Source of the DNA: Terriglobia bacterium
GTDB lineage: Bacteria; Acidobacteriota; Terriglobia; 20CM-2-55-15
DNA: 38,907 nucleotides
Direction: 5' to 3'
Assembly (NCBI GenBank): GCA_035712125.1
Contig: DASTBJ010000769.1
Coordinates: 1 to 38,907 of the forward strand
How positions within the stretch are numbered: position 1 is the stretch's first letter; each line of letters starts with the position of its first letter. The notes under the pieces are model-generated. The model made no database searches, was not told the DNA's origin, and saw only the letters and a program-made list of their open reading frames with translations. Of this stretch, positions 14,992 to 38,907 are shown piece by piece. Both the position numbers and the translations under genes were made by a program.

Positions 14992-14996
14992 AACAG

Positions 14997-25453: not shown

Positions 25454-26740
25454 ATGAAGATGCGCTATCCGATCGGCTCAATCGCAATGTCCGCTACGGC
25501 GCTGGTCCTTGCGTCATTCATCTCCCAGGCGTGGCCGCAACAACCCGCGCCGCCCCAGGGTGGCGCGGGTGCACGCGGTCAGGGCGGCGCCGGGGGCCGT
25601 GGAAGCACGCCGCCGCCGATCAATTGGCCCTCGCCGCCTCTTCCTGCGGGGCCGATCGTCGTCGAAACCGCCATCCAGCGCAACATCAAGCTGTTTGTCA
25701 CGAAGGGTCTCAGTCAGCCCTGGAGCATGGCGTTTCTGCCTGACGGGAGCATCCTTGTCACGGAGCGCGCCGGCCGCCTGCGGATTGTCCGGAACGGCGT
25801 CCTCGATCCATCCCCCATCGCCGGCATTCCCGAAGTCCGTGCGCAAAGTCTGGCGGGGTTGATGGACCTTGCGCTGCATCCGCGCTTTGCGGAAAACCGA
25901 TTCGTTTACTTCAGTTATCACAAGCCGAATCCGGCCGGAGGGAATGCCGGAGTCGTCACGCTGGCTCGAGGACGATGGGATGGGAAGGCGCTGAACGAAG
26001 TCAGTGATCTCTTTACAGGTATCCCCACGGGAAACGCGTCGCGAATTGTGTTTGGCAAAGACGGCATGATTTACATGTCGATCGGTCATGGGGATAACAA
26101 TCCCGAGTTGGCTCAGGATCCCAGTACGCTCAATGGAAAGGTTCTCCGGCTGCGCGACGACGGGTCTGTACCGTCCGATAACCCGTTTGTCGGGCGAGCG
26201 GGACATCGCCCGGAGATCTTCACGTTGGGACATCGCAATCCTCTGGGTCTTGCGCTGAACCCCATCACCGGGGAAATTTGGGAGTGCGAAAACGGCCCGA
26301 ATGGTGCCGATGAGATCAACGTGCTCCAGGCCGGTAAGAACTACGGTTGGCCTGTCGTCAGTTACGGCCGCTTCTACCCCGGCCCGCGCGTCAGCGAGCG
26401 TCCCTGGCAGGAAGGCATGGAACAACCGCTTGTGTTCTGGGTTCCCGCGATCGCCATTTCAGGCATGACCTTCTATACCGGTGACAAGTTCCCGAACTGG
26501 AAGAATCACGTTTTCGTCGGAGGCATGCGCACCGGAGAAGTGCCTCGTTCGGGTCATCTCGAACGTATCGATTTTAACGACAAGTGGGAGGAACTGCATC
26601 GCGAGGGAATGCTGCGCGAACTGCAGAATCGCATTCGCGACGTGCGGCAGGGACCTGACGGGTTTCTTTACCTGCTCACGGCCGAGAATGACGGAGCGCT
26701 GATTCGCATTGAACCCACGACGGATCCCGTATCGCGCTAA
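25454..26740 (+). CDS. Secreted PQQ-dependent sugar dehydrogenase, copy 2
   Basis: Signal peptide followed by a Gln/Pro-Gly/Arg linker. QPWSMAFLPDGSILVTERAGRLRIV, IFTLGHRNPLG and YGWPVVSYG. It is a paralogue of 8325-9554, visibly alignable across most of its length. Confidence 0.85.
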   Translation: MKMRYPIGSIAMSATALVLASFISQAWPQQPAPPQGGAGARGQGGAGGRGSTPPPINWPSPPLPAGPIVVETAIQRNIKLFVTKGLSQPWSMAFLPDGSILVTERAGRLRIVRNGVLDPSPIAGIPEVRAQSLAGLMDLALHPRFAENRFVYFSYHKPNPAGGNAGVVTLARGRWDGKALNEVSDLFTGIPTGNASRIVFGKDGMIYMSIGHGDNNPELAQDPSTLNGKVLRLRDDGSVPSDNPFVGRAGHRPEIFTLGHRNPLGLALNPITGEIWECENGPNGADEINVLQAGKNYGWPVVSYGRFYPGPRVSERPWQEGMEQPLVFWVPAIAISGMTFYTGDKFPNWKNHVFVGGMRTGEVPRSGHLERIDFNDKWEELHREGMLRELQNRIRDVRQGPDGFLYLLTAENDGALIRIEPTTDPVSR

Positions 26741-26814
26741 ACGATGCCGCGGCAGTATTGGAAACCTGCAGCAGGTTGTTGTAACCTCCCGTCTTTCATT
26801 CCCCAGGAGGACCC

Positions 26815-28305
26815 ATGAAAAGGGCATTTGTGCTTGTGTTGACGTTGACCGCTCTGTTACTGACGCAGACTGTAATAGCCCAGGATGCAAAGACAGTCGT
26901 CGCCACCGCATCGAAAGCGATGGGAGTAGAGGGACTGAACTCCATTCATTATTACGGCGTCGCCCAGAACGGCAATCTCGGGCAGAACAATAACGCCAAT
27001 CAGCCCTGGCCGATGGCGAACGCCAATGATTACGTTCGCGCTATCGCCCTCGATCCCGCAAAGGCACAGTCGCGGGCGACGTGGGTGAACTATGCCGTGC
27101 CCGTGACCGGCGGCGCGGCTGCGCAAACGCCGGGCCAGCAAAATATCGCCGGCGATGCTCCATGGGCGCAGCAGCTCGAAATCTGGATCACGCCCTGGGG
27201 ATTTCTCAAGGGAGCTGCGGCGAACAACGCGACAGTCCGCGCGCAGACGCTCAACGGCAAGCGATATCAGGCGGTGACGTTTAGCCCCGCAAGTCCGAAA
27301 TCTCCAGGCGGTTTGCCCTATCGCGTCGTGGGCTATATCAATAGCGAGAATCTTGTTGAGAAGGTTCAAACATGGCTCGAACATCCCATGTTCGGAGACA
27401 TGCTGGTGGATGCCGACTATCTGCATTATCGTGAGGGCGCTAACGGGCTGAAGTATCCCGCGCAGATTGTACAGACGCGCGGCGGCTGGCCGACCTTCCG
27501 TGCGTACATTCTCGGCGCCCATCCGAACCCTGCGAACATACAGCAGTTGTTGACGGCTCCACCGCCGGCTGCACCAGCCGCTGCGGCCGCTCCGGCTGCG
27601 GCCGCAGCGCCTCCACGCACCTCAGAGCAGCTCGCCCCGGGCGTCTGGCGAATCAATGGCGCGTACAATGCGCTGGCGATTGAATTCGCCGATTACATCG
27701 TGCTCTATGAGCCCGGACCTCAAAACACACCGCAGGATCCGGAGGGCCGGGCCAGGGCGATCATCGCCGAGACAAAGCGAGTGATTCCAAATAAGCCGAT
27801 CCGCTTTGGCGTGATCTCTCACCATCATCTCGATCACACAGGGGGGTTGTCGGCGGTCGTAGCCGAGGGGATAACGATCGTCACGCCGGCTGTGAACAAG
27901 GCGTATCTGGTGAACGCTCTGTCTGCGCCGCGGACGCTCGCGCCCGATTCCTTGTCCAAGTCCGGCAAGAAGCCGATTGTCGACGGCTTTGTCGGCGACA
28001 AAAAGGTTTTTCAGGACGCCACGCGCACGTTCGAGCTTCATGTCGTGAAGAATCTGCCCCACGCTGATGGGAACGTGATCGGCTACTTACCCAAAGAAAA
28101 GATCCTGGTTTATGCGGACATGTTCAATCTGCCGACGGCGGCGTCGGGCCCGGTTCCGAATCCTCCGGTCATCGGTACGATGGTCTTCCTCGACAACATC
28201 GAGCGCTTGAAACTGGATGTGGAGCGGATCATGTCCGTGCACACGCTGAATCCGGATCGGTTGACTTCCGTTGCGGATATCCGAGCGTCGCTGGGAAGGA
28301 AGTGA
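26815..28305 (+). CDS. Secreted two-domain MBL-fold metallo-hydrolase
   Basis: Signal peptide, then an ~250-aa N-terminal domain of unknown type. An Ala/Pro linker (PPPAAPAAAAAPAAAAAPP) follows. The MBL domain has ISHHHLDHTGG and PHADGN. Confidence 0.8.
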   Translation: MKRAFVLVLTLTALLLTQTVIAQDAKTVVATASKAMGVEGLNSIHYYGVAQNGNLGQNNNANQPWPMANANDYVRAIALDPAKAQSRATWVNYAVPVTGGAAAQTPGQQNIAGDAPWAQQLEIWITPWGFLKGAAANNATVRAQTLNGKRYQAVTFSPASPKSPGGLPYRVVGYINSENLVEKVQTWLEHPMFGDMLVDADYLHYREGANGLKYPAQIVQTRGGWPTFRAYILGAHPNPANIQQLLTAPPPAAPAAAAAPAAAAAPPRTSEQLAPGVWRINGAYNALAIEFADYIVLYEPGPQNTPQDPEGRARAIIAETKRVIPNKPIRFGVISHHHLDHTGGLSAVVAEGITIVTPAVNKAYLVNALSAPRTLAPDSLSKSGKKPIVDGFVGDKKVFQDATRTFELHVVKNLPHADGNVIGYLPKEKILVYADMFNLPTAASGPVPNPPVIGTMVFLDNIERLKLDVERIMSVHTLNPDRLTSVADIRASLGRK

Positions 28306-28324
28306 CGTAGCGGAGTAGAGTTTT

Positions 28325-28358
28325 GGAAAGGCGCACCTGCGACTCCTGTGCGCCTTCC
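28325..28358. terminator. Hairpin in the convergent intergenic region (possible U-tract-less terminator)
   Basis: GGAAAGGCGCAC-(11 nt)-GTGCGCCTTCC, about an 11-bp stem with one bulge. There is no downstream T-tract on either strand. Confidence 0.3.
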
Positions 28359-28483
28359 CGCATCGGCCGACCAGAACCCGGTGCAATCGATGCTTTCGCG
28401 ACAGGGTCTGAAGGATCTTTCTCGGCGGTTGAACGCGCTCACCTGTTGACTCAGGCAATAACAGCCTTAACCTCTATGGCCCT

Positions 28484-29218
28484 CTACTTCGTCGTGCAGA
28501 CGCCAACTGTCTGGAGTGAGGTGACGTTGATGCGTGTGTCGGCATCGTCTTTATAGAGGAGGCCCTTGATGTCGACCTTCTTGCCCGAATGTTGCTGCGG
28601 GTCGAATCCGGCAACGTTCACCAGGAGGAAGTTCTGTTTGCCCAACGGAAGCGCGTCGGCTGTCTTTAGTTCTTCGGCCGTCGAAGCCTGATCTCGCGAC
28701 AGAACCGGTTCCGTAGTGTTAGTCAGAATCCAGCTCCTATTCGAACCGGCCGCAAGGCAACCCACAACACGCACGACTGAAAAGTTCGAGACGACCTGGA
28801 CGGCTCCCTTGCGCACAATCTGAATGTTCTCTAGTGTTTCGGCGTCGACCTTGAGTTCCTGCGTTCCCGCAGGATAGCCGTTGGTCCGAAGAAGAAATGT
28901 CAGGACGTCCAGTTTGGCCTCGTCCGTAAGGATCGTGCCGAAGTTTGGCGGCATCGTGTCCCGAATCTTCACGAAGAGTTTGTAAAGGTTTTCGTTTTCC
29001 CACGCCGTAATAAAACGGTTGCCATTGAGGGAGGGTGCCGTCAGGCCGGCCAGGTCCTGACCGTGACAGCGTGTGCAGCTTTGGGCGAAGTCTGCTTTGC
29101 CGCGTTCGGCCTGCTCGTTGCTGAAAATGCCGGTCCAGATCCGCGCTTCCTGTGCGCGCGCAGTCGAAGCGGTGCCGGAAACGATAAGGAACGCGAGGAT
29201 CAGAACACGCGGAGTCAT
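28484..29218 (-). CDS. Periplasmic c-type cytochrome domain protein with a beta-rich C-terminal domain
   Basis: Signal peptide MTPRVLILAFLIVSGTASTARAQ. A single CTRCH haem-binding motif with a downstream Met (RDTMPP). ATGA overlap with the ankyrin gene. Confidence 0.75.
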   Translation of the reverse strand: MTPRVLILAFLIVSGTASTARAQEARIWTGIFSNEQAERGKADFAQSCTRCHGQDLAGLTAPSLNGNRFITAWENENLYKLFVKIRDTMPPNFGTILTDEAKLDVLTFLLRTNGYPAGTQELKVDAETLENIQIVRKGAVQVVSNFSVVRVVGCLAAGSNRSWILTNTTEPVLSRDQASTAEELKTADALPLGKQNFLLVNVAGFDPQQHSGKKVDIKGLLYKDDADTRINVTSLQTVGVCTTK

Positions 29219-30738
29219 CTGAGGAATTCGCGAAGGATCGTCGCAGCGGCAAGATTACTGCCGCCGCCGCCGGGGCCGCCGCCTCGTGCGCCGCGGCCAC
29301 CCGCTCCCGGAGCTGGGGGCCCGCCCGGGCCCGCTCCAACACCCAGTGCCAGATCCATCGGAGTGCGGCCTTGTTTGTTCTTCATGTCGAGCTTGGCGCC
29401 ACTCTCGGCGAGATATCGAACGATCAGGTTGTTGCCGCGCTGCACGGCGATATGAAGAAGTGTCTGGCCATTGGCATTGAAGGCGTCAATATCGAGACCA
29501 TGCGCCACCCCCAGCTTGATCGTTTCGAGGATGGCTGATTCGTTTCCAGCGCCGCGACCATTCATCAGGATCATCGCCATGTTGGAGTAATCCTTCTGTG
29601 TGAGCGATGGGTTGGCGCCTCCCTGAATCAGTGCCTTGATAACTTCAAAGTCCGAGGATTTCGCGGCGCGCATTAGCGCCGTCGTGCCTTCGCCCATGGA
29701 CGCATCCCCGGAATCGTGATGCCGGCCGATGATGGGCTTCTTCAATCCGACATTGGGATTGGCTCCGTGCTTTAACAGAACCGGCACGAGCGCGGCCGCA
29801 TCCAGTTTATCGATCACCTTCGGCGCCGGACGACTCAGCATTGGGGCCAGCGTATGCATATCCACTGCAGCGTAGAGCGCTGTCATCCCCGAACTGTCCG
29901 CAATGTTGAGATCAGCGCCTTTCTCCGCCAGCATCGCCGCAAGATCAAAATGTGCGTTGATGATGGCAACGATCGTGGCCGTCGTTCCATCGGGGTCCGT
30001 CAGATTCGGGTTTGCGCCCGCTTCCACCAGGGCTCGAGCCGCTTCCATGGAACCCTGGCGGGCCGCGTACATCAGCGGCGTCCAGCCGCCCTTCGGCAAC
30101 GCGGTTATGACCATACCGGAAGTAAGGAACTTGAACTCCGGGAACTCCATCAGTCTGGACTTCGCGTTGAGGTCCCCACCGCCGTCTGCAAGCACTCGAA
30201 TCGCGGCCGCATTGTTTTCCGCGGCGGCCCACATCATGGCTGTTTCACCGAAGCGCTGTTCGCGCTGGTTAGGTTTTGCTCCATGGGACAGGAGCATGCC
30301 GACTGCGTCGGGTTTACCGGTATGCGCGGCCGTCATCAGAGCGGTTTCACCCGTCGGGAGCGTTGCATCGGGATCCGCGCCGGCTTTCAGAAGAAGCTCG
30401 ATCATCCCAGCGTTCCCATTTTCTGCCGCGAATTTCAATGGACTGATGCCGTAGCGATCGGTCAGGCGGGCATTCGCGCCGGCCTGCAGGAGCAACTTGA
30501 CCGCTTCCATGTCATCGGAGCGCACCGCCCAATGCAGAGCGGTCGTGCCGTCTGTCGCGACGGCATTAACGGGAACTCTCTCTTTCAGGAGCGTTCGAAT
30601 AGTCGCCTTGTTTCCCTGCTTTGCGGCGTCGATCAGGCGGCGGTCATTCTGGGCGGCACGCATGCCGGCAGCAACGGAGAGCACGACCAGAAACGTTGCC
30701 AGACTCCTTGCCGCAAGTTTGTGTTTCCGTCCTCGCAC
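29215..30738 (-). CDS. Periplasmic ankyrin-repeat protein with a Gly/Arg-rich C-terminal tail
   Basis: About a dozen ANK repeats (..G.TALHWAV......VKLLLQAGAN.N...). I place the start at GTG 30738. It overlaps the upstream TAG (TAGTG) and yields a Sec-type leader, VRGRKHKLAARSLATFLVVLSVAAG. The ORF-track start at 30951 lies inside the upstream gene. Confidence 0.85.
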   Translation of the reverse strand: MRGRKHKLAARSLATFLVVLSVAAGMRAAQNDRRLIDAAKQGNKATIRTLLKERVPVNAVATDGTTALHWAVRSDDMEAVKLLLQAGANARLTDRYGISPLKFAAENGNAGMIELLLKAGADPDATLPTGETALMTAAHTGKPDAVGMLLSHGAKPNQREQRFGETAMMWAAAENNAAAIRVLADGGGDLNAKSRLMEFPEFKFLTSGMVITALPKGGWTPLMYAARQGSMEAARALVEAGANPNLTDPDGTTATIVAIINAHFDLAAMLAEKGADLNIADSSGMTALYAAVDMHTLAPMLSRPAPKVIDKLDAAALVPVLLKHGANPNVGLKKPIIGRHHDSGDASMGEGTTALMRAAKSSDFEVIKALIQGGANPSLTQKDYSNMAMILMNGRGAGNESAILETIKLGVAHGLDIDAFNANGQTLLHIAVQRGNNLIVRYLAESGAKLDMKNKQGRTPMDLALGVGAGPGGPPAPGAGGRGARGGGPGGGGSNLAAATILREFLR

Positions 30739-32057
30739 TAAACCTCGAACCTCCCTGTACTCAGCGTCCCGTACTTTGCTGTCTCTCCGCCGAACTTCTG
30801 CGCGAGATCCAACAGCAGGTTCGCAAACGGTGTCTGCGGCGGAGCCTGAATGTGCCTGTTGCCCTTCAAAAGACCTGCACCCCCTCCAACAAGCAACGTT
30901 GGAATGTCCAGCCTGGAGTGCGTATTGCTCTCGCTCATGCCGCTGCCCCACAGGATCAACGAATGATCCAGCAATGACCCGTCACCATCCGGAGTAGAAC
31001 GCAGCTTCTCGAGAAATCGTCCGAACAACGAAATGTGGTACGTATTCAGCTTCACGAGATTCTGGATCTTCGACTCATCGCCGCCGTGATGCGACATCGA
31101 ATGGTGCGGCTCGGTCAACCCGAGGTTTGGATACACCCGCTGGCTCGCATCGCGGCTGATCATGTATGTGAAGACGCGCGTGATATCGGCTTCAAGTGCC
31201 AGTGCCAGCAGATCGAACTGCAGCATGGCATGGTCTTCGAAGGATTCCGGAATTCCAATCGGAGCGTCCGGCACTCGGATTTCGGTCGTTGCCTGCTGCT
31301 CCGCTCGCTCAATACGGCGTTCGATTTCCCGCACGTTCTCGAGATAAGCCTCCAGGCGTTTGCGGTCACCCGGACCCAGACTCGCTTCAAGATCCGCAAC
31401 ATCCTGTTTCACGGAATCGAGAATGCTGCGATCTCTCGTCATGCGTTCAATGCGCTGAGCGCTGGTGCCTGGTCTCCCAAACAGACGCTCAAAAACGATT
31501 CTGGGGTTGATCTCCATGGGAAGCGGGGTCGTGGGATTACGCCATGAGATCGTGTTCATGTAGGCGCACGAATACGCCGGATCGCACCCGCCGATGTATC
31601 CGGTGAAGTCTTCTGTCGCCAGCTCAAGCGATGGATAGACCGTTTCCTGACCGATCTGACCGGCGATGACCTGGTCGATGGAGATTCCTGCCAGCACGTC
31701 TTCGGCGATAGTGCGCTTGGGAGTTGACCCGGTGAGCCAGGCCCCCACACTGACAGCATGGCCGTCCAGCGGATTGCACAAATTAGACACGACAGTCAGA
31801 TGGTTCCGGAACGGCTCGAGCGGTTTCAGGATCGGAGAAAAGTCGAAGTCCGCGCCTGTATTCTTCGGATTCCAAAAACCCGGCCGCTCTCCAAGAGGAA
31901 CCATGGCGACGCCGAACCGGCGTTGCTTCGGATTCGCGGCGGCTTTGGCAGTAGCGGTCAGAGCGGGTGACATGGCCTCGAGAAATGGCAGGGCCAGCGT
32001 CGCGCCCATGCCGCGCAGAACGGCGCGTCGGGATAAATGCATCTTTGTAATGAACAT
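30738..32057 (-). CDS. Tat-signal DUF1552-family protein (HxxSHH motif)
   Basis: MFITKMHLSRRAVLRGMGATLALPFLEA twin-arginine leader. The HSMSHHGG motif and overall pattern are typical of DUF1552. AAGGAGG lies 6 nt upstream of the ATG. Confidence 0.85.
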   Translation of the reverse strand: MFITKMHLSRRAVLRGMGATLALPFLEAMSPALTATAKAAANPKQRRFGVAMVPLGERPGFWNPKNTGADFDFSPILKPLEPFRNHLTVVSNLCNPLDGHAVSVGAWLTGSTPKRTIAEDVLAGISIDQVIAGQIGQETVYPSLELATEDFTGYIGGCDPAYSCAYMNTISWRNPTTPLPMEINPRIVFERLFGRPGTSAQRIERMTRDRSILDSVKQDVADLEASLGPGDRKRLEAYLENVREIERRIERAEQQATTEIRVPDAPIGIPESFEDHAMLQFDLLALALEADITRVFTYMISRDASQRVYPNLGLTEPHHSMSHHGGDESKIQNLVKLNTYHISLFGRFLEKLRSTPDGDGSLLDHSLILWGSGMSESNTHSRLDIPTLLVGGGAGLLKGNRHIQAPPQTPFANLLLDLAQKFGGETAKYGTLSTGRFEV

Positions 32058-32068
32058 GGTCTCCCTCC

Positions 32069-34468
32069 TTAGTTGCTGCTACCTGACGCCTTGACTCTCA
32101 TCTGGAACGGTGTGCTCTGGACGATTTCTGAAACAATCGATGAAAACCTGTAGTTGCTTCGCGCAGAGTCTCGCACGATCGCGCGGACCGTGGGCATATC
32201 GTAATGCGCGAGACCCCTGCCGAGCGCATAAGTCATGAGTTTCTCTGTGAAGGTCTCGACGAATATCTCAGGATCCCGCAATAGCGCTTTCTTGAGATCG
32301 ATCACACCATTGACCTTCGTTCCATCCAACAACTGTCCGGAAGCATCGATGGGCAAACGAGCTTCGTGGGTTCTCCAGGCGCCTACTGCATCAAAGTTCT
32401 CCATAGCGAAACCGATGGGATCCATGATGCTGTGACAGCCGGAGCATGCCGGGTTCTCTCGATGCTCCTCCATCCGTTCTCTCATCGACAGAATCTTGCC
32501 CTCGCGCACCGCGCTCTCCTTCAAAGGAGGAACCATCGCGGGTGGGGGTGGTGGTGGCGCTCCCATCAGATTTTCCAGGATCCACTTTCCGCGAACGACG
32601 GGTGAAGTCCGATCTGTATGCGAGGTCACCATCAGAATGCTGCCTTGTCCCAGCAGTCCCTTACGTGCGTCGTCCGCGATCGCGACGCGACGGAAATGAC
32701 TTCCATAAACATTCGGAATCCCGTAGTGCTTCGCGAGGCGTTCATTCACGAACGTGTACTCGGCGGTCATGAGATCCAGCACATTCCGGTCTTCCTGAAT
32801 AATGCTGTAGAAGAATAACTCCGTCTCGCGCTGAAGTGCGTGGCGCAGGTTGTCATCGAAGTCCGGAAACTCAAGCGAGTTGGGTATTTGGTTCTTCAGA
32901 TTCCGCAGATATAACCATTGGCCGGCGAAGTTCTGAACGAGAGCGTGCGCTTTGGGATCCGCCAACATGCGGCGCACCTGCTGGTCCATAGCAGCGGCGG
33001 TCCTCAATCGTCCCTGTGCTGCCGCGGTGAGGAGCTCATCATCGGGAATGCTGCTCCATAGAAAGAACGATAGGCGCGACGCCATCTCGAGGTCGTTTAC
33101 TCGATACACGGATCCTGCAGCCACGTTCGTAGGGTTCGTTTCTGTTCTGAAAATGAACTTGGGACTCGAGAGCACTCTCTGCAGCGCCACCTGGATACCC
33201 TTCTCGAAGTCTTTGCCGGCGCGTTCGGTCTTGTAAAACGACATCAGCCTTTCGATGTCCGTCGGTTTCTCCAATCCGCGATACGCCCGATGAACAAGTG
33301 TGGCGAGAATTTTTCGTGCACAAGGCTCCTCGTCAGCCGCGTTCTTTGGTCTGCAGACAAACACCCTCCGGCGGCTCGGCGTATCGCCGGGGCCCGTCGC
33401 GTTAAATGGTCCGGTGATGGTGAATGAATCGATGTGGGCGTGTCCGGACGGATCCAGAGTATCGTTCGAACTCCGAATAAACGGCTGGAGCCGGAGTGTG
33501 TTTTCTCCCGGCTTTTCGATGAATGCCACCCCGATCTCTCGAGGCCCCGCCTTCAGGTTTACCCGCGTCGCCGATCGTCGCTCTGCATCGTCCGCAGCGA
33601 GCGTGATGTTTTCGAGCGCCCACTTGAAATCCGCGTCGCCACCAAACTTACCGAGGTGGACGCGTTCGCCGTCGACTGTGATTTCGACTTCATGCGGGTA
33701 CTCCAGGCCTCGCATGGCGCCCAGGTTGGTGCGGAAGTATCGAACCGAGATCGCATATTCACCGTCGAGAGGAAGATTCACTTTCGCGAGCGCTCCACCC
33801 ACCGTCCCCAAGGGGAGGCCTTCGATGTGCCGGTCCTGCGACGCATCCTGCCGGATCCGAATAGTCTGGCTCCCCGGCCGGGTATCGGGATCGCCAACTG
33901 CAAGGGAACTGATCTGACCCGCTGCCGACAAGTAGCGCTCCAACAGAACCGGGGAAACAACGAGAATGTCCGCATTGTTGTCGAATCCGTAACCGGAATC
34001 ATCCGGTGGCAGCAAAGTCGCGGGGTCCACTTCGAGCGCGAGCAGATCGCGGACTGCGTTCGCGTATTCCGCCCGGTTCAACCGCCGAAGCAAGGGACGC
34101 CCAGGATCGGGCCGTCTTTCCGCTGCTCGGTCAAGGTTGGTCACCAGCCAGGACGCGAGGTTATTCCGAACTGCGTCGTCGGGCTTCGGTTTGCCCTGCG
34201 GCGGCATCATTCCCGACCGCAGCTTTCGGACCACCTTTTCCCAAACATCGGCGTTGGCGGCAATGTTGTTGAAATCAATCGCTTCAAGCGATAGTCCCGC
34301 TGTTTTCAGGGTCTGGTTATGACACGTGACGCAGTATTGGTTAACTACTGCCCGATATTGAGCGCCTGCGGAATTCGCCCCGGACTGAATCGTCGCCGCT
34401 ACGGGGATCGGCCGCGCCGGAGATAGGATCCAAAACGATAAGGCCAATATAAAGAGACGTTTGCCCAT
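32069..34468 (-). CDS. Multi-domain DUF1592-type protein (planctomycete-cytochrome/PSD architecture: DUF1587-DUF1592-DUF1595-DUF1588-DUF1585) with two CxxCH motifs
   Basis: Signal peptide. CVTCHNQ near the N-terminus, RRLNRAEYANAVRDLL, and a C-terminal CSGCHSIMDPIGFAMENFDAVGAWR. Confidence 0.85.
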   Translation of the reverse strand: MGKRLFILALSFWILSPARPIPVAATIQSGANSAGAQYRAVVNQYCVTCHNQTLKTAGLSLEAIDFNNIAANADVWEKVVRKLRSGMMPPQGKPKPDDAVRNNLASWLVTNLDRAAERRPDPGRPLLRRLNRAEYANAVRDLLALEVDPATLLPPDDSGYGFDNNADILVVSPVLLERYLSAAGQISSLAVGDPDTRPGSQTIRIRQDASQDRHIEGLPLGTVGGALAKVNLPLDGEYAISVRYFRTNLGAMRGLEYPHEVEITVDGERVHLGKFGGDADFKWALENITLAADDAERRSATRVNLKAGPREIGVAFIEKPGENTLRLQPFIRSSNDTLDPSGHAHIDSFTITGPFNATGPGDTPSRRRVFVCRPKNAADEEPCARKILATLVHRAYRGLEKPTDIERLMSFYKTERAGKDFEKGIQVALQRVLSSPKFIFRTETNPTNVAAGSVYRVNDLEMASRLSFFLWSSIPDDELLTAAAQGRLRTAAAMDQQVRRMLADPKAHALVQNFAGQWLYLRNLKNQIPNSLEFPDFDDNLRHALQRETELFFYSIIQEDRNVLDLMTAEYTFVNERLAKHYGIPNVYGSHFRRVAIADDARKGLLGQGSILMVTSHTDRTSPVVRGKWILENLMGAPPPPPPAMVPPLKESAVREGKILSMRERMEEHRENPACSGCHSIMDPIGFAMENFDAVGAWRTHEARLPIDASGQLLDGTKVNGVIDLKKALLRDPEIFVETFTEKLMTYALGRGLAHYDMPTVRAIVRDSARSNYRFSSIVSEIVQSTPFQMRVKASGSSN

Positions 34469-34537
34469 GGGGAATCTGGCGCGGAGTATATATCAGTGGT
34501 CTTGTGCCATGCGAGTTCTTTGGGTTACTCTCGCTCC

Positions 34538-35008
34538 ATGCATTACGCCGTGATAAACAGCCCGATGGGACCACTTACCCTCGCTGTCTCAGACAAGGGC
34601 CTCGCCTCCATAAAGTTCGGGAACGCGGTTCCCGAGGGTGCGGTTCCCGAAGCGAATGCAAGCCAGGAAACGGTCGATCAGCTCACGGAATACTTTCAAG
34701 GAAAGAGGACCCAATTCGATCTTCCGCTCGATATCGAGGGTACCGATTTTCAGAAAGCGGTCTGGAGCGAGTTGCAACGGATTCCGTACGGGGAAACCCG
34801 CTCTTACGGTGACATTGCGAAAGCCATCGGACGTCCTGGTGCAGCCCGAGCCGTTGGAATGGCCAACCACGACAACCCACTTGCGGTCGTTATTCCTTGC
34901 CATCGTGTCGTCGGGCGGGATGGTTCACTTACCGGTTATGCCGGAGGTGTTCATTTGAAGGCACAACTTCTTTCAATCGAACGCCGGCACCGAACACTTT
35001 TCACGTAA
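34538..35008 (+). CDS. ogt: Methylated-DNA--protein-cysteine methyltransferase
   Basis: PCHRVVG active site and YGETRSYGDIAKAIG. I prefer ATG 34538 (MHYAVINSPMGPLTL) over the upstream start in the ORF track. Confidence 0.9.
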   Translation: MHYAVINSPMGPLTLAVSDKGLASIKFGNAVPEGAVPEANASQETVDQLTEYFQGKRTQFDLPLDIEGTDFQKAVWSELQRIPYGETRSYGDIAKAIGRPGAARAVGMANHDNPLAVVIPCHRVVGRDGSLTGYAGGVHLKAQLLSIERRHRTLFT

Positions 35009-35074
35009 CCCCCTCACCACACGGCAACGTGGGGCGCGAGGGGACCTCAAAAATTCCAGGAATACACCACAGCT

Positions 35075-36868
35075 ATGCCTAAGAACGAAGCATTGGATAC
35101 CAAACGTCACTCTCTCGCCCACCTGATGGCCGCGTGCATCCAGGAAATGTTTCCGGAAGCGCGGTTTGGAGTCGGACCTGTCATTGAAGACGGCTTCTAC
35201 TACGACGTTAGTCTTGGGCGTACGTTGACGCCCGATGATCTCGCGGAGATCGAGAAGAGGATGAGGCAGAAAGTCAGTCAGGGACTGTCCTTCGATCGGT
35301 CGGAAATGCCTACGGATGAAGCGATTAACGTTTTCGGCGGAATGCAACAGGTTTTCAAGGTGGAACTCCTTCGCGACCTGAAAGCGCGCGGTACCACGGC
35401 CGTTGCCGAACTTGATGATACGAACCTTGTAGGAGACAGCGTTACCGAAGTCAGCGTCTACAAGACCGGGACCTTTACCGACCTTTGCCGGGGCCCGCAT
35501 GTGAAGAACACGCGAGAGATCGCCCCCGACAGCTTCAAGCTCACCCGTGTGTCGGGCGCCTACTGGCGGGGCGACCAGTCGCGCGAGCAGATGCAGCGGG
35601 TCTACGGCGTCGCCTTCGATACTCGAAAGGAGCTCGACGCTTATTTCGTTCGGCTGGAAGAGGCAAAGAAGCGGGACCATCGCAAGTTGGGTCAGGATCT
35701 GGATCTCTTCAGCATTCAGCCCGACACGGTTGGCGGCGGATTGATCCTGTGGCACCCGAAGGGGGGACTCATCCGCCATCTGGCGGAGGAATATTGTAAG
35801 CAACGGCACCTGGAATCCGGGTACGACTTCGTTTACACCCCTCACATCGGCCGTGCGACGCTCTGGGAGACCAGCGGCCATCTGGGGTTCTACGCCGAGA
35901 ACATGTATGCGCCGATTAAGATCGACGAACAGCTCTATTACCTCAAGCCGATGAACTGTCCGTTCCACGTGAACATTTTCGGGAACTCGAGGCGATCCTA
36001 TCGGGAGCTGCCGATGCGCCTGGCAGAGTGGGGCACCGTGTATCGGTTCGAGCGCAGCGGCGTGCTTCACGGATTGACCCGCGTCCGCGGCTTCACACAG
36101 GACGACGCGCATCTGTTCTGTCGCCCGGATCAGATGCCGGCGGAAATCGACAAGGTGCTCAACTTCAGTCTCGATATCCTGCGCGCATTCGGCTTTGACA
36201 CGTTCGAGCTGTTTTTGAGCACGCGCCCGCCGAAGCGTGTAGGTCGCGAAGAAGACTGGGACGTCGCAGAAGCGGCTCTCGAAGAGACGTTGAAGCGCTC
36301 AGGCATTCCCTATCAGATCAATGAAGCGGACGGCGCCTTCTACGGTCCGAAGATCGACTTGATCGTCAAGGACGCGATTGGACGCCCGTGGCAGCTCAGC
36401 ACCGTTCAGTTCGATTTCAATCTGCCCGAGCGGTTCAACCTGACTTATGTTGGCGAAGACGGCGCGCCGCATCGTCCGTTCATGATTCATCGCGCTTTGC
36501 TCGGGAGTATGGAGCGATTTTTCGGTGTCTTGCTCGAACACCATGGCGGCGCTTTACCGGTTTGGCTCTCTCCTGTCCAGGCAATGATCATTCCCATTGC
36601 GGACCGCCATAAAGACTACTGCGCCGATGTTCAAGCGCGATTGAAGGCGGCAGGGTTGCGTGCCGACATCGACGCCGGCGAGGAGCGAATGAATGCCAAG
36701 ATCCGCAATGCCCAGCTGCAGAAGATACCGTACATGCTGGTCGTCGGAGATCGCGAGCAGGAAGGCGGAGCCGTCTCGGTCCGGCTGCGGTCAGGAGAGG
36801 ATCTTAAATCGAAGAGTGTGGAGGAGTTTGTCGCGCTTGCGACGACGACTGTTAAGAACCTCAAGTGA
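35075..36868 (+). CDS. thrS: Threonine--tRNA ligase (short form lacking the N-terminal TGS domain)
   Basis: 597 aa. It starts at the editing-domain motif RHSLAHLMA. It also has CRGPHV, RDHRKLG, KPMNCPFH and FTQDDAHLF motifs plus an anticodon-binding domain. Confidence 0.95.
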   Translation: MPKNEALDTKRHSLAHLMAACIQEMFPEARFGVGPVIEDGFYYDVSLGRTLTPDDLAEIEKRMRQKVSQGLSFDRSEMPTDEAINVFGGMQQVFKVELLRDLKARGTTAVAELDDTNLVGDSVTEVSVYKTGTFTDLCRGPHVKNTREIAPDSFKLTRVSGAYWRGDQSREQMQRVYGVAFDTRKELDAYFVRLEEAKKRDHRKLGQDLDLFSIQPDTVGGGLILWHPKGGLIRHLAEEYCKQRHLESGYDFVYTPHIGRATLWETSGHLGFYAENMYAPIKIDEQLYYLKPMNCPFHVNIFGNSRRSYRELPMRLAEWGTVYRFERSGVLHGLTRVRGFTQDDAHLFCRPDQMPAEIDKVLNFSLDILRAFGFDTFELFLSTRPPKRVGREEDWDVAEAALEETLKRSGIPYQINEADGAFYGPKIDLIVKDAIGRPWQLSTVQFDFNLPERFNLTYVGEDGAPHRPFMIHRALLGSMERFFGVLLEHHGGALPVWLSPVQAMIIPIADRHKDYCADVQARLKAAGLRADIDAGEERMNAKIRNAQLQKIPYMLVVGDREQEGGAVSVRLRSGEDLKSKSVEEFVALATTTVKNLK

Positions 36869-37010: not shown

Positions 37011-37512
37011 GTGCGCCAGGTAAAGCTTGGTCCATCTCACAAGCTGAAAGGAGCTTGTCCTTGAAATGATCCGTTCATCAAGATAGCCGCGCAAGCGTGT
37101 GGAATTGGAGCAATCCGCAACACGAAGCCTTGCAAGGCGAAATCATGAGCCGCAGCGAAAGCGAACCCAGTTCGGCCTCGTTAGAAATAAATGAGAGAGT
37201 GGCCAGTCTTCCAAATCGGATGAAGCCTGACATCGGTGTTGAAGAAGCGGATATCGGCAGACACCGAACTCTCCGGGGTGTTAGGGGGCAGCGCGTGATG
37301 AAAGAAGGACCAGGAACCTGGGAGACCCGCGGTTTTTTTTGCGGGAGTCGGACAGCCCATAGTAGCGATGAAACGGGTAACGACCGCGGAGCGAAGGGGC
37401 TGAATGTGAGCGAGCAACTGTAAGAGGAGGAAAGAGCCGCTTGGATGAAAATCCCACTACGGGACAACCGGAATGGCAACTGAGGGCGCCGGAGATCGGG
37501 CCGGAGGTGAGC

Positions 37513-38835
37513 ATGCCGGAGAAACTCTTTCAACTGAGACAGAAGCTGAACGAGAAAGCGAAGCGAGAGCCAAAGTTTCGGTTCTATGTCTTGTATGACC
37601 GGATCTTTCGGCGTGACGTACTGGAGACGGCCTGGAAACGGGTGAAGGCCAACAAAGGAGCGCCCGGGGTGGACGGCGTGACGATGGCGATGATCGAGAA
37701 CAGCGAAGCCGGAGTTGTGGGCTTTCTGGCGGAGATCGAGCAGTCGTTGCGGCAGAAAACCTACCAGCCACAGCCTGTACGTCGGGTATGGATTGAGAAA
37801 GCCAATGGGAAGCTGCGGCCACTGGGAATCCCGACGATACGGGATCGTGTGATCCAGATGGCAGCGTTCCTGATCCTGGAACCGATATTCGAGGCGGATT
37901 TTCTAGACTGTAGCTATGGGTTCCGCAGCGACCGATCGGCCCATGATGCCCTGAAGGAAATTCGAACGCATCTGCGAGCGGGCTATCAGGCCGTCTACGA
38001 TGCGGATCTGAAGGGGTACTTTGATTCGATTCCGCATCAACAACTGATGGCCTGTGTGGCGATGCGGGTTGCCGACCGGTCGGTATTGAAGCTGATCCGG
38101 ATGTGGCTGGAAACGGCAGTGGTAGAGGAACAGCCGGATGGACAACCGCCGAAGGTGAGCCGGACTACCACCGGGACACCGCAAGGTGGGGTGATCTCGC
38201 CATTGCTGTCGAATATCTACCTGCACTGGTTCGATAAGGTGTTTCACCGCATCGACGGACCGGCGCGGTGGGCCAACGCAAAGCTGGTGCGCTACGCCGA
38301 TGACTTTGTGGTGCTGGCACGCTATCAGTCCAGGCAACTGGGAGAGTTTATCGAATCGAAGCTGGAGCAGTGGATGGGGCTGAAGCTCAACCGGGAGAAG
38401 ACACGGGTCGTGCATCTCCGGCACGCTGGAGCGAGTCTGGATTTCCTAGGCTATACGTTCCGCTATGACCGGAGTCGGCCAGGTCAGCCTGCGTATTTGA
38501 ATGTGTTCCCTTCGAAGAAAGCGTTGCTGAAGCAGCGGTCCGTTGTACGAGCTCTTACCCACAGTCGGTACGGGTTCAAACCGACTCCGGTCTTGCTTGC
38601 GGACCTCAATCGCAGCCTTCATGGATGGGCGGCATATTTCAGACTGGGCTATCCCGGCAAAGCCTACCGGAATCTCAACTACTATGTGCAGCAACGTTTG
38701 CGGATTCATCTCAGTCGCCGCAGCCAGCGTCCGTATCGTGCGCCCGAAGGCCGCAGCCTTTATGCGCATCTTCGTGATCTGGGTCTGCGGTCCTTGACAC
38801 CGTCGCGTGATCGCTCTGCTCGTTTGTTCACATGA
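37513..38835 (+). CDS. Group II intron reverse transcriptase/maturase (no endonuclease domain)
   Basis: RT blocks including [35 protein letters not shown] and RYADDFVVL (YADD). Maturase X region LDFLGYTF...LHGWAAYFR. The C-terminus is short with no HNH motif. I prefer ATG 37513 (GGAGG 5 nt upstream) to TTG 37441. Confidence 0.9.
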
Positions 38836-38868
38836 GAGCCGGATGCGGGAAATCTGCACGTCCGGTTC
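38836..38868 (+). other. Group II intron domain V (catalytic hairpin)
   Basis: GAGCCGGAUGCGGGAAAUCUGCACGUCCGGUUC. The lower stem GAGCCGGA/UCCGGUUC carries the AGC triad, a 2-nt AC bulge is present, and the apical loop is GAAA-like. Confidence 0.85.
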
Positions 38869-38871
38869 GAC

Positions 38872-38903
38872 GAGGGGCCCGCGACTTGCTCGCGGGCCTA
38901 CTC
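38872..38903 (+). other. Group II intron domain VI with bulged branch-point A
   Basis: GAGG-GGCCCGCGA-CUUGC-UCGCGGGCC-U-A-CUC. A perfect 9-bp stem with an unpaired A at 38900. Confidence 0.75.
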
Positions 38904-38907
38904 TACA

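Follow-up and report, generated by a model that had tools for sequence, protein, structure and literature searches.

What might four proteins with predicted export signals, encoded head to tail on the minus strand of a bacterial genome, do together? The DNA that we analyzed (the window) is 38,907 nucleotides in length and comes from a soil acidobacterium, and housekeeping genes surround the four-gene module. The genes are co-directional, and either overlap or nearly abut. A check of the open reading frames bore out the coordinates and sizes given for all four in the original prediction.

32069 to 34468, minus strand: P1, 799 amino acids
30738 to 32057, minus strand: P2, 439 amino acids
29215 to 30738, minus strand: P3, 507 amino acids counted from the GTG start
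28484 to 29218, minus strand: P4, 244 amino acids
32064 to 32070, minus strand: AAGGAGG, Shine-Dalgarno sequence for P2 in the P1-P2 gap, read directly from the sequence
34469 to 34537, no strand assigned: divergent intergenic region between P1 and an ogt-like gene, from gene calls; presumed promoter region of the operon

The TAA stop codon of P1 is followed by an 11-nt gap containing the AAGGAGG, and then by the ATG of P2. The stop codon of P2 and the start codon of P3 overlap in TAGTG, with GGGAGG lying upstream, and the ATG of P4 falls on the stop codon of P3 in an ATGA overlap. All three junctions had been predicted in this form, and each was re-read in the sequence. The same gene boundaries are found in public gene calls from near-identical contigs, and the divergent gap upstream of P1 varies between 27 and 69 nt across gene calls. 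A scan for the sigma-70 consensus found no promoter-like site in 28000–35100, including the presumed promoter region ahead of P1, and a consensus scan for terminators gave three matches in the same interval, which is below shuffle expectation. From the gap with its Shine-Dalgarno sequence, the two overlaps and the scans, P1–P4 appear to be a single unit of transcription and translation. All four products are predicted to be exported: P1, P3 and P4 carry Sec leaders, and P2 has a conserved twin-arginine motif.

The original prediction assigned P1 and P2 to the DUF1592-type and DUF1552 families, and HMM searches place both firmly there. After its signal peptide P1 has a class I cytochrome c domain, followed by PSD3, a section of ~185 aa without assignment, PSD5, PSD4 (DUF1592), PSCyt3 (DUF1588) and PSD2. 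The Pfam matches to these PSD and PSCyt3 domains and to the N-terminal cytochrome c have E values from 1e-16 to 3e-48, in agreement with the predicted planctomycete-cytochrome/PSD architecture with two CxxCH motifs.

34319 to 34333, minus strand: haem-binding motif 1 of P1, C46-V-T-C-H50, invariant in 29 homologues
32432 to 32446, minus strand: haem-binding motif 2 of P1, C675-S-G-C-H679, within PSCyt3, invariant in four phyla

Motif 1 is found in all ankyrin-linked P1 proteins, including those of sphingomonads. Met88-Pro89-Pro90 is invariant in the alignment of 29 homologues, and an MPP at 87–89 is conserved in 51; Met88 is the probable axial ligand of the motif-1 haem. Motif 2 is embedded in the signature H669-x5-CxxCH-x3-DPxG, and is invariant in P1-type proteins of Acidobacteriota, Alphaproteobacteria, Bacteroidota and Planctomycetota. 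Searching the PDB with P1 by sequence and by profile revealed no relative.

P4 had been described as a Sec-exported CTRCH cytochrome c with a beta-rich domain. This is correct, and the beta-rich part can now be resolved. The exported protein has a mono-haem class I cytochrome c domain (aa ~28–125, with Met89), matching Cytochrome_CBB3 in Pfam at residues 36–109, and a C-terminal domain (aa ~141–244) carrying a conserved Cys154 and a C-terminal Cys.

29063 to 29077, minus strand: haem-binding motif of P4, C48-T-R-C-H52; 38 homologues all keep C48, C51, H52 and M89

The C-terminal ~130 aa have no Pfam match. In an AF2 model of P4 (pLDDT 80) the haem domain finds cytochrome cL and c-551i as its best Foldseek matches, and the C-terminal domain finds the OB-folds of SSB, the LysRS N-domain and YgiW. 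On this model the extra domain is an OB-fold.

P3 has a signal peptide (aa 1–29), 11–12 ankyrin repeats (aa ~31–466), a Gly/Arg/Pro-rich linker and a short C-terminal helix. Pfam (ankyrin families, E 4e-65) and the homologues confirm the expected Sec leader, about 12 repeats and Gly/Arg tail; the homologues keep the signal peptide, the linker and an 'xTAALLRELMA' helix. More generally, the motifs quoted in the original prediction (CVTCH, CSGCH, SRRAVLR, HHSMSHH, CTRCH and the Gly/Arg tail) are all present, and are conserved in 30–68 homologues. P3 and P4 also exist as a natural fusion of 729 aa comprising ankyrin, cytochrome c and OB sections, 53% identical to P3 and 50% to P4, in which a polar linker stands where the signal peptide of P4 would be. 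There are three full-length copies (P0253, P0395 and P0397), each from a separate assembly, and P0253 comes immediately after genes for P1 and P2.

As the original prediction had proposed, we surveyed gene neighborhoods, and found the DUF1592/DUF1552 pair accompanied by ankyrin and cytochrome genes across Acidobacteriota, and by the ankyrin gene in Sphingomonadaceae too. The acidobacterial sample comprised 80 reference-genome loci holding a P4 homologue. P1-P2-P3-P4 are colinear in 52 of these; the P1-P2-ankyrin trio is convergent in five and otherwise linked in three, giving some linkage to the trio in 60. The four-gene order persists down to 35% P4 identity, and at 49% identity it is retained despite different flanking genes. 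One locus (L017) has the alternative order P4-P1-P2-P3. Lineages with the conserved order are labelled Terriglobia, Vicinamibacterales/Vicinamibacteria and Bryobacterales. P1 homologues of 44–93% identity hold the same position in related loci, there can be several paralogous modules in a genome, and a third cytochrome gene or a di-haem P4 is present in some modules of Acidobacteria. In 15 of the 80 loci P4-type cytochromes stand apart from the trio.

These data bear on whether P3 is part of a working complex. It could instead lie outside it as an assembly or maturation factor, inserting metal or haem or protecting P2 after Tat export, with P4 a general-purpose periplasmic cytochrome encoded nearby by happenstance. 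The close translational coupling of P2 and P3 would suit a dedicated chaperone, Cj1386 carries haem to catalase (PMC10294975), and P4-like genes turn up elsewhere too, in the vicinity of PQQ glucose dehydrogenase. We nevertheless think this explanation very unlikely. The fusion binds the carrier permanently to the ankyrin protein, which is hard to square with a transient chaperone; the P4-alone genes are a derived clade nested within the module-linked P4s; and the binding surface of twelve repeats is larger than a simple chaperone would be expected to need.

The P1-P2-ankyrin trio is also present in cultured Sphingomonadaceae (Novosphingobium, Sphingomonas and Sphingobium), with a start-stop overlap between the P2 and ankyrin genes; the Novosphingobium ankyrin protein aligns collinearly with P3 (E 4e-30). 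We looked at four such trio operons from sphingomonads, and in three of them the P4 slot, after the ankyrin gene, contains genes for class II cytochrome c (PF01322) and for cytochrome b561, a membrane protein (PF01292), with gaps ranging from a 4-nt overlap to 29 nt. This class II cytochrome c is not homologous to P4, and the cytochrome b561 family interacts with quinones. One Novosphingobium trio operon has no cytochrome gene following the ankyrin gene, and S. herbicidovorans has a second, ankyrin-less DUF1592/DUF1552 pair with the same two cytochromes. Ankyrin and extra cytochromes are absent from most pairs sampled in other phyla (Bacteroidota and Planctomycetota). Because the trio recurs in sphingomonads with other cytochromes in the P4 slot, the conserved core is P1-P2-ankyrin, to which a lineage-specific electron carrier is attached; P4 is an add-on, seen here in Acidobacteria only. 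The presence of the trio in cultured sphingomonads means that the proposed exported electron-transfer machine could be studied in culturable bacteria. A chance adjacency of four unrelated genes is effectively refuted by the synteny in the 52 loci and in a second phylum, the coding overlaps and the gene fusion, and has almost no probability left.

P2 is the best conserved component, with 84% identity compared with 74% for P3 and 65% for P4 in locus L010; among 120 matches listed from a search of 5.8 billion proteins every one is at least 72% identical. It is presumed to be the catalytic subunit. P2 belongs to HXXSHH/DUF1552 (Pfam E 4e-93), and conservation of its Arg pair and His motif upholds its description as a twin-arginine DUF1552 protein.

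32013 to 32033, minus strand: twin-arginine motif of P2, S9-R-R-A-V-L-R15; R10 and R11 are invariant in 30–61 homologues
31086 to 31106, minus strand: histidine cluster of P2, H318-H-S-M-S-H-H324, the family signature, conserved in 61 homologues

R11 is retained over four phyla, and one homologue has a weak Pfam TAT_signal match. The cluster H318–H324 is a candidate metal ligand set. H319 is invariant between phyla, as are H100, D128, D231, E246, R294, D364, S372 and H380. When an AF2 model of P2 (pLDDT 64, pTM 0.68) was compared with the PDB using Foldseek, the ~30 best matches were sulfatases, phosphonate monoester hydrolases or LtaP, with a top E of 1e-5, although TM-scores against alkaline-phosphatase-superfamily structures are only ~0.4. 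Sequence-profile searches found no relative in that superfamily, and neither the canonical beta-1 Asp nor a nucleophile could be mapped on P2. With moderate confidence the model suggests an alkaline-phosphatase (AP)/sulfatase superfamily fold. P2 had been predicted to be a Tat-exported partner that might bear a cofactor. The Tat motif supports the first part, and the second is refined: given the AP-superfamily fold, a metal ion is more likely than an organic cofactor. The known enzymes of the superfamily are, to our knowledge, all hydrolases, transferases or mutases and none is redox. If P2 had a redox role, it would be the first of them to do so.

The fold raises the possibility of hydrolytic nutrient scavenging, with P2 an ordinary sulfatase-, phosphatase- or phosphodiesterase-like hydrolase of the superfamily, P1 a partner that binds substrate or serves as an anchor without redox function, its CxxCH haems having a structural or sensory part, and P3 and P4 accessory or loosely connected. 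The modeled similarity to sulfatases, phosphonate monoester hydrolases, LtaS and ENPP would fit this. P1-type proteins elsewhere bear carbohydrate-binding modules (CBMs), such as the CBM2 of a Cellvibrio DUF1592 protein in a lignocellulose-bound proteome, CBM associations were noted by He et al. (PMC5615132), and the families are expanded in polymer-degrading phyla (PMC5615132, PMC3542564). TonB-dependent receptor genes now and then adjoin the module, but at close to the rough background rate for Acidobacteria. Yet hydrolysis leaves unexplained the invariance of the haem motifs over four phyla, the ankyrin-cytochrome fusion, and the presence in sphingomonads of a different cytochrome c and a b561 where P4 would otherwise stand. 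We therefore regard it as unlikely.

The haems could alternatively serve in detoxification of periplasmic oxidants, P1 reducing peroxide or another oxidant in the manner of a di-haem peroxidase. Its electron donor would be P4, whose place is taken in sphingomonads by class II cytochrome c and b561; P3 would be AnkB-like, stabilizing or haem-loading the haem enzyme, and P2 auxiliary. P1 has two c-type haem sites, and bacterial cytochrome c peroxidases usually receive their electrons from small soluble cytochromes. The housekeeping-gene surroundings would fit a constitutive protective function, and periplasmic ankyrin helpers of catalases are documented (PMC10294975). But P1 resembles neither CCP/MauG nor any other protein of solved structure in sequence or profile searches, and the best-conserved partner is P2 rather than P1, for which this scheme has no explanation. 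P3 has ~12 repeats compared with about four in AnkB-type proteins, and several paralogous modules per genome suggest diversity of substrates rather than a single detoxification task. This explanation seems to us distinctly unlikely.

We favor a reading in which P1–P4 form one exported, most likely periplasmic, redox complex, and give it an even chance of being correct. Two independent lines strengthen the original prediction of a periplasmic redox machine: P3 and P4 are fused in nature, and in sphingomonads class II cytochrome c and b561 take the place of P4. The function is what we infer, together with the physical complex, the metal cofactor and the identity of the catalytic site. The haem motifs of P1 and P4 and the His/Asp set of P2 are invariant. 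In such a complex P2 would be the catalytic core, a Tat-exported enzyme of AP-superfamily fold with an invariant His/Asp cluster and a metal ion probably loaded prior to export. P1 would be its obligatory partner, with the PSCyt3 haem adjoining the catalytic site and the N-terminal class I haem passing electrons outward. P3, made in step with P2 by virtue of the overlapping stop and start codons, would be an adaptor whose dozen or so ankyrin repeats dock a mobile electron carrier on P1-P2. In Acidobacteria that carrier would be P4, a cytochrome c with one or two haems and with its OB-fold as a handle. It would link the complex to the respiratory chain, whether at the bc1 complex, at a terminal oxidase or at a periplasmic dehydrogenase. 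We have a slight preference for electrons entering P1-P2 and powering an oxidative or a reductive reaction at the metal center of P2, in the way that cytochrome domains supply LPMOs or peroxidases. The reverse direction, with P1-P2 acting as a dehydrogenase supplying the respiratory chain, is almost as likely. Precedents for the complex are ankyrin proteins that assist haem enzymes (PMC10294975) and the cytochrome domain of Cbp2D (PMC8981238). Counting against it are the medium-confidence model of P2 in a superfamily with no known redox enzyme, the Novosphingobium trio operon that ends without a cytochrome gene, the P4-type genes apart from the trio, and the DUF1592/DUF1552 pairs of other phyla, most of which have neither ankyrin nor extra cytochromes.

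The DUF1592/DUF1552 pair is long known and uncharacterized; a literature search found no description of its ankyrin/cytochrome extension, and no characterized function for the four-gene module. The pair had been said to have no assigned function, and papers naming it do call it unknown (PMC5615132, and PMC3542564 for the sister DUF1501 module). Pairing of DUF1592-type and DUF1552 proteins was noted by He et al. 2017 (PMC5615132), the domains having been defined in Rhodopirellula baltica. By Pfam, P1 and P2 belong fully to the PSCyt3/PSD and DUF1552 pairs known from Planctomycetota, Verrucomicrobiota and elsewhere. Their genes are likewise adjacent and co-directional, with the Tat signal in P2 and the PSCyt3 CxxCH in P1. 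Unlike the two-gene pair described, the present operon and those of sphingomonads add an exported ankyrin protein and dedicated cytochromes.

The DUF1501 and PSCyt1/PSCyt2/PSD1 module of the PVC superphylum has many paralogues, sometimes in four-gene clusters, and was proposed to function in electron transport (Kamneva et al. 2012, PMC3542564). It too pairs a Tat-signal enzyme with a large exported protein having cytochrome c motifs, but the Pfam families differ on both sides, and its four-gene version has PPC-like domains and other partners in place of ankyrin and cytochrome c. In Cellvibrio japonicus the cytochrome domain CjX183 of Cbp2D passes electrons to a copper LPMO, and knockout of cbp2D and cbp2E slows growth on cellulose (Branch et al. 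2021, PMC8981238). Like P1, Cbp2D is an exported multi-domain protein with c-type cytochrome domains and DUF1587/PSD3. It differs in having CBM2, YceI-like and FN3 domains; the PSD4/PSCyt3/PSD2 block is absent from the annotation quoted in PMC8981238, where neither a DUF1552 partner nor ankyrin is reported. Comparison of P1 with PDB chains, which include CjX183 (7B21), gave no detectable sequence similarity.

AnkB-type proteins are small, roughly 180–200 aa. They are periplasmic ankyrin proteins that bind haem enzymes and promote their activity, as in AnkB/KatB and Cj1386/KatA (reviewed in PMC10294975). P3 resembles them as a signal-peptide ankyrin protein encoded beside an exported haem enzyme, but differs in its number of repeats, its Gly/Arg linker and its terminal helix. 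The partner of the AnkB type is catalase, whereas those of P3 would be P2/P1 and a c-type cytochrome.

Periplasmic enzymes with a dedicated cytochrome include SorAB, methanol dehydrogenase with cytochrome cL, and hydrogenase or formate dehydrogenase with cytochrome b. We know of no ankyrin adaptor in any of these systems, and P2, the presumed catalytic subunit, differs in having a predicted AP-superfamily fold and no recognizable Mo, PQQ, FeS or flavin domain. The operon shares with them a Tat- or Sec-exported catalytic subunit and a probable respiratory link through an operon-encoded c-type cytochrome or PF01292 cytochrome b, and in the model of P4 the haem domain is structurally nearest to cytochrome cL, the partner of methanol dehydrogenase.

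Four genes on the minus strand run head to tail within the window, and the ORF listing matches exactly the coordinates at which the operon was originally predicted.

32069-34468, minus strand: P1, haem protein of the PSD/PSCyt3 (DUF1592) type, 799 aa
30738-32057, minus strand: P2, DUF1552 (HXXSHH) protein, 439 aa
29215-30738, minus strand: P3, ankyrin protein, 507 aa
28484-29218, minus strand: P4, cytochrome c with an OB domain, 244 aa

The junctions read from the sequence are also those of the prediction: an 11-nt gap containing AAGGAGG between P1 and P2, a TAGTG stop/start overlap between P2 and P3, and an ATGA overlap between P3 and P4. In addition, GGGAGG lies upstream of the P2-P3 overlap. 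Independent gene calls on two farmland-soil metagenome contigs, which encode an identical P4 and 100%-identical P1-P3, place the boundaries identically. P1 and P2 are direct neighbours on one strand, led by the gene with the cytochrome motif, here and in every related locus examined. Consensus scans for sigma-70 promoters and terminators gave nothing informative.

The rest of the window is housekeeping in character (pyrimidine synthesis, ffh, 6S RNA, pheST, infC and thrS), and its close relatives carry the label Terriglobia. The genes thrS-infC-rpmI-rplT-pheS-pheT normally form one contiguous housekeeping cluster, which is here interrupted by the operon. The features surrounding the four genes are as follows.

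8325-9554, minus strand: second PQQ-dependent glucose/sorbosone dehydrogenase (GSDH) gene
14802-14993, minus strand: 6S/SsrS RNA gene (Rfam RF00013, 65 bits), beside a YmdB-like phosphoesterase gene and ffh
25454-26740, plus strand: PQQ-dependent glucose/sorbosone dehydrogenase (GSDH) gene, convergent with the operon
26815-28305, plus strand: exported metallo-beta-lactamase (MBL)-fold protein, 496 aa, with an Ala/Pro-rich insert, between GSDH and the operon
28484-36868: operon and ogt-like methyltransferase gene (34496-35008), inserted between thrS and infC-rpmI-rplT-pheS-pheT
37441-38906, plus strand: group II intron at the contig end, with a reverse transcriptase/maturase ORF (RVT_1 and GIIM)
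38834-38906: Rfam match to Intron_gpII, 3' of the reverse transcriptase/maturase ORF

The same interruption by the operon and the ogt-like gene is seen in three related loci (L003, L005 and L007), and the divergent intergenic region between ogt and P1 is only 27-69 nt. The adjacent GSDH and MBL-fold genes (25454-28305) were considered as parts of the module and rejected, because they are syntenic only in the closest relatives (loci L001-L004) and absent from L005 and L007. This GSDH carries after its signal peptide a Gly/Arg-rich low-complexity stretch (GGAGARGQGGAGGRG), like the Gly/Arg linker that ends P3. Locus L001, with 100%-identical P1-P4 and flanking MBL and GSDH proteins, has two thymidylate-kinase genes after thrS and no intron there. 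The group II intron looks like a strain-variable insertion, and it probably ended the assembly.

P1 had been placed in the DUF1592-type family by its signatures, and Pfam bears this out. An N-terminal cytochrome c domain is followed by PSD3, PSD5, PSD4 (DUF1592), PSCyt3 (DUF1588) and PSD2, with scores for these last five of 61-164 bits against cut-offs of 23-34. There is a class I haem site comprising C46xxCH50 and Met88-Pro-Pro, the latter invariant in the homologue alignment. The second haem motif, C675xxCH679, lies in PSCyt3 within the signature H669-x5-CxxCH-x3-DPxG. Both sites are kept in 51 acidobacterial homologues, and the second is invariant across four phyla. Residues ~195-380 have no match in Pfam up to an E-value of 10, sequence and profile searches of the PDB found no solved relative of P1, and NCBIfam has no model for either P1 or P2.

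P2 falls, as proposed, within the DUF1552 family (Pfam PF07586, HXXSHH; E 4e-93, 312.9 bits against a cut-off of 30). Across 61 homologues the H-x-x-S-H-H motif (HHSMSHH, residues 318-324) is conserved, and the twin-arginine motif and a set of His and Asp residues are kept throughout. R11 of the twin-arginine leader is invariant across four phyla, and H100, D128, D231, E246, R294, H319, D364, S372 and H380 are invariant from Acidobacteriota to Planctomycetota. The best PDB matches of an AlphaFold2 model (pLDDT 64, pTM 0.68) are exclusively members of the alkaline phosphatase/sulfatase (AP) superfamily (1p49 with E 1e-5, 4uph, 4uop, 6fny and others; probability ~1.0, TM ~0.4). By type they are steroid sulfatase (E 1e-5), phosphonate monoester hydrolase, LtaP, choline sulfatase and ENPPs, and the core of the model is the alpha/beta fold common to sulfatases, phosphonate monoester hydrolases, LtaS and ENPP. 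Neither phmmer nor a 30-sequence profile against the PDB, nor Pfam up to an E-value of 10, detects a likeness to this superfamily by sequence. Because sequence profiles miss the relationship, the AP fold predicted for P2 is moderately supported. The invariant H100, D128, D231, H319, D364, S372 and H380 could form the metal/nucleophile site of the superfamily, which canonically has an Asp at the end of beta-1, Asp/His pairs and a Ser, Thr or Cys (FGly) nucleophile. There is no conserved acidic residue at the end of beta-1 (P54-x-G56), and no CxPxR motif. The main rival to a redox function takes P2 to be a plain hydrolase and the haems to be non-catalytic; this fits the fold of the model, and is at odds with the conserved haem sites.

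P3 was described as an exported ankyrin protein with about 12 repeats. Pfam identifies the ankyrin repeats, of which 11-12 can be counted by eye. They follow a signal peptide, which all P3 homologues possess, and in the closer homologues a Gly/Arg-rich linker leads into a short conserved helix (xTAALLRELMA).

P4 is a cytochrome c with an extra beta-rich domain, in agreement with the original prediction. Pfam identifies Cytochrome_CBB3, and the C-terminal half, which has no Pfam family, models as an OB-fold, a five-stranded beta-barrel (pLDDT 80 for P4, mostly 82-95 in the OB region at model residues 148-240). C48, C51, H52 and M89 are invariant in the homologue alignment. In Foldseek the haem domain lies closest to cytochromes cL and c-551i (the top matches 7c90 and 2c8s are both cytochrome cL), and it has the traits of class I c-type cytochromes: CxxCH with a Met ligand downstream of it, and the fold of that class. 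Scores against the NCBIfam MoxG and PedF models are far below their cut-offs. The C-terminal domain resembles OB-folds of the SSB, LysRS-N or YgiW type (Foldseek TMt 0.4-0.54, E ~4e-3 to 2e-2); Cys154 is conserved within it, and most homologues have a further Cys near the C-terminus. Searched on its own against 1.84 billion representative proteins, the OB domain has 554 relatives (~554 representative clusters), most of which are cytochrome c plus OB; the short matches to a stand-alone OB domain may include fragments, such as the clearly truncated P4 P0241. One 489-aa protein (P0266) has two SnoaL-like domains fused ahead of the cytochrome c and OB unit.

The ankyrin and cytochrome genes had been expected to co-occur with the DUF1592/DUF1552 pair, and they do so. 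P4 homologues of 88%, 70%, 65% and 49% identity all lie behind P1-P2-P3, the last of these in a completely different flanking context. A scan with the P4 alignment, taking one genome per GTDB species, gave 80 loci that were classed by BLASTP of the window proteins against their ORFs; nearly all are from Acidobacteriota (Terriglobia, Vicinamibacterales and Bryobacterales). The order P1-P2-P3-P4 is colinear in 49 of the 80, and three more are consistent with it on truncated contigs. The P1-P2-ankyrin trio is convergent with P4 in five loci, another linked arrangement is found in three, P4 stands alone in 15 and five are uninformative. In a neighbor-joining tree most of the solitary P4 genes form one derived clade that is nested among module-linked P4s and includes two module-linked members, so that the stand-alone context is most likely secondary. 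Many genomes contain several modules, with extra P1-P2-P3 trios next door. Conservation is consistently highest in P2 and lowest in P4 or P3 (in locus L010, P2 84%, P1 77-83%, P3 74% and P4 65% identity).

The P4-like genes without the trio lie in loci L012 and L020 and in 13 others from Vicinamibacterales and other Acidobacteriota. In L012 and L020, the two loci annotated, the upstream genes are DUF885 and a PQQ glucose dehydrogenase of the membrane type (~800 aa); L020 also has DUF6152 and a BNR-like gene ahead of the P4-like one. This hints that a P4-type cytochrome can also serve quinoprotein dehydrogenases. A PQQ dehydrogenase, the operon partner of MxaG/PedF-type cytochromes, directly adjoins the module itself in L007/L010 and in the context of the homologue P0100. 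Overall, such a gene is present in only about six of 60 module loci. In one Terriglobia-like lineage it is a soluble PQQ-propeller enzyme located 3' of P4 after an 8-nt gap (L007 8753-10333, on the same contig as L010), and in another lineage the dehydrogenase precedes P1. It could be a lineage-specific electron source or sink. On clustering all ORFs of the 80 loci, the only other recurring neighbours are TonB-dependent receptors of the CarboxypepD_reg type and PQQ dehydrogenases. Both occur at around background frequency by our rough estimate, and were therefore left out of the module.

The search with the OB domain also revealed a single protein of 729 aa in which P3 (53% identity, residues 10-464) is joined to P4 (50% identity). 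At the join the ALLRQL helix is retained, the signal peptide of P4 is absent and there is a polar linker. Three full-length copies occur in separate assemblies, and one of them (P0253) is encoded directly behind P1 and P2. A frameshift across the ATGA overlap might create such a product artificially; this was rejected because a polar linker replaces the P4 signal peptide and the same 729-aa product is present in three assemblies. The fusion is classic Rosetta-stone evidence for joint action of the ankyrin protein and the cytochrome. It is also at odds with P2 as a plain hydrolase accompanied by non-catalytic haems.

Outside the Acidobacteriota the trio recurs with other partners. A tblastn search of plasmids and chromids found a Novosphingobium DUF1552 gene of 40% identity, in a locus that has P1 with the same domains, P2 and an ankyrin protein collinear with P3 (E 4e-30), without P4. 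A 178-aa ORF behind the ankyrin gene was considered as an equivalent of P4 and rejected, because the hhalign probability was 0.1%. Cultured Sphingomonadaceae widely carry homologues of the Novosphingobium P2. In Sphingomonas panacis, S. azotifigens and Sphingobium sp. KCTC 72723, P1, P2 and an exported ankyrin protein are followed by a class II cytochrome c (PF01322) and a cytochrome b561 (PF01292). P2 and the ankyrin gene share 8 nt, and further along the operon the junctions vary between a 4-nt overlap and a gap of 29 nt; this cytochrome-extended operon was seen once per genome in the three genomes examined. S. herbicidovorans has a more distant pair that lacks the ankyrin gene, followed by the same two cytochromes. 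The pairs of Chondrinema (Bacteroidota) and Planctomyces have neither the ankyrin nor the cytochrome extension. In some Acidobacteria the slot behind the ankyrin gene also holds additional cytochrome c genes or a di-haem P4. With P4 in Acidobacteria and a class II cytochrome c plus b561 in sphingomonads, the slot is therefore filled by non-homologous carriers according to lineage. This is the pattern expected of a redox enzyme that is plugged into the respiratory chain of its host, and such interchangeable cytochromes are difficult to reconcile with a plain hydrolase.

In all three sphingomonads (loci L094-L096) a long gene (~500 aa) of the adenosine-deaminase family runs divergently from the operon, and in two of them purine permease and amidohydrolase genes are neighbours of the operon as well. 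This neighbourhood may simply be inherited synteny.

The reading of the operon as a periplasmic redox machine is thus supported and sharpened by the synteny, the P3::P4 fusion, the replacement of carriers and the conserved haem motifs. We propose that the four proteins would form one exported complex, most likely periplasmic. P2 would be the Tat-exported enzyme, probably bearing metal, with P1 as its di-haem partner. P3 would act as an ankyrin adaptor produced in step with P2, and P4 as a docked cytochrome linking the complex to the respiratory chain. We give this model of the architecture and redox wiring about an even chance of being correct.

The definition of PSCyt/PSD proteins and their DUF1552/DUF1501 partners goes back to Rhodopirellula baltica (Studholme et al. 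2004, as related by Kamneva et al. 2012, PMC3542564). The sister DUF1501/PSCyt2 module was described in 2012, likewise without function (PMC3542564), and He et al. 2017 noted the PSCyt3/DUF1552 pair, of whose function nothing was known (PMC5615132). P1-P2 is a bona fide member of that last pair. In the freely available full-text literature searched, we found no biochemical characterization of DUF1552/DUF1592-type proteins, and no description of the ankyrin/cytochrome extension, which at the outset had not been recognized as a described arrangement. The pair is therefore already known and uncharacterized, and the extension is probably what is new.

Few unexplained gene families in phyla abundant in soil and water are as expanded as PSCyt/PSD and DUF1552/DUF1501. 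The module offers three footholds that are missing from the pair on its own. First, its electron carriers are both conserved and interchangeable (P4, or a class II cytochrome c together with cytochrome b561, whose family exchanges electrons with the quinone pool), which argues for respiration-linked redox chemistry by the pair. Second, some genomes fuse the ankyrin protein to the carrier, and specific protein-protein contacts are predicted from this. Third, cultured bacteria carry the same trio (Sphingomonas panacis, S. azotifigens, Novosphingobium spp. and Sphingobium sp. KCTC 72723), and in them it should be feasible to make deletions, stain for haem, analyse metals and screen substrates. 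An old unknown thus becomes testable, with tractable organisms and specific predictions.

Electrons might flow in either direction. Output is favoured by the resemblance of the P4 model to the acceptors of quinoprotein dehydrogenases, and PF01292 cytochromes classically reduce quinone. Input is favoured by the lack of an organic redox-cofactor domain in P2. A further step, for which we would put the chances at well under one half, is that the DUF1552 enzymes form a novel class, namely exported redox metalloenzymes with an alkaline-phosphatase scaffold that are driven by the haems of their PSCyt3 partner, with the ankyrin adaptor here docking the carrier. If so, the complex would to our knowledge be the first in bacteria in which an ankyrin protein organizes electron transfer, and it would provide a mechanistic key to hundreds of PSCyt/DUF1552/DUF1501 paralogues in Planctomycetota, Verrucomicrobiota and Acidobacteriota. 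For an ankyrin protein that binds a haem enzyme there is a precedent in the AnkB-type periplasmic helpers, which like P3 have a signal peptide and ankyrin repeats. That P3 might likewise bind and activate its partner enzyme is hinted at only indirectly, by the P3::P4 fusion and the P2/P3 stop-start overlaps. They share an operon with the catalase that they assist, whereas P3 does not, and there is no catalase gene in the window or among the annotated neighbours in related loci. For the haem drive the likeness is to cytochrome domains that drive LPMOs: Cellvibrio Cbp2D, which combines cytochrome domains with DUF1587, reduces LPMOs through its cytochrome domain (PMC8981238), and this too favours electron input.
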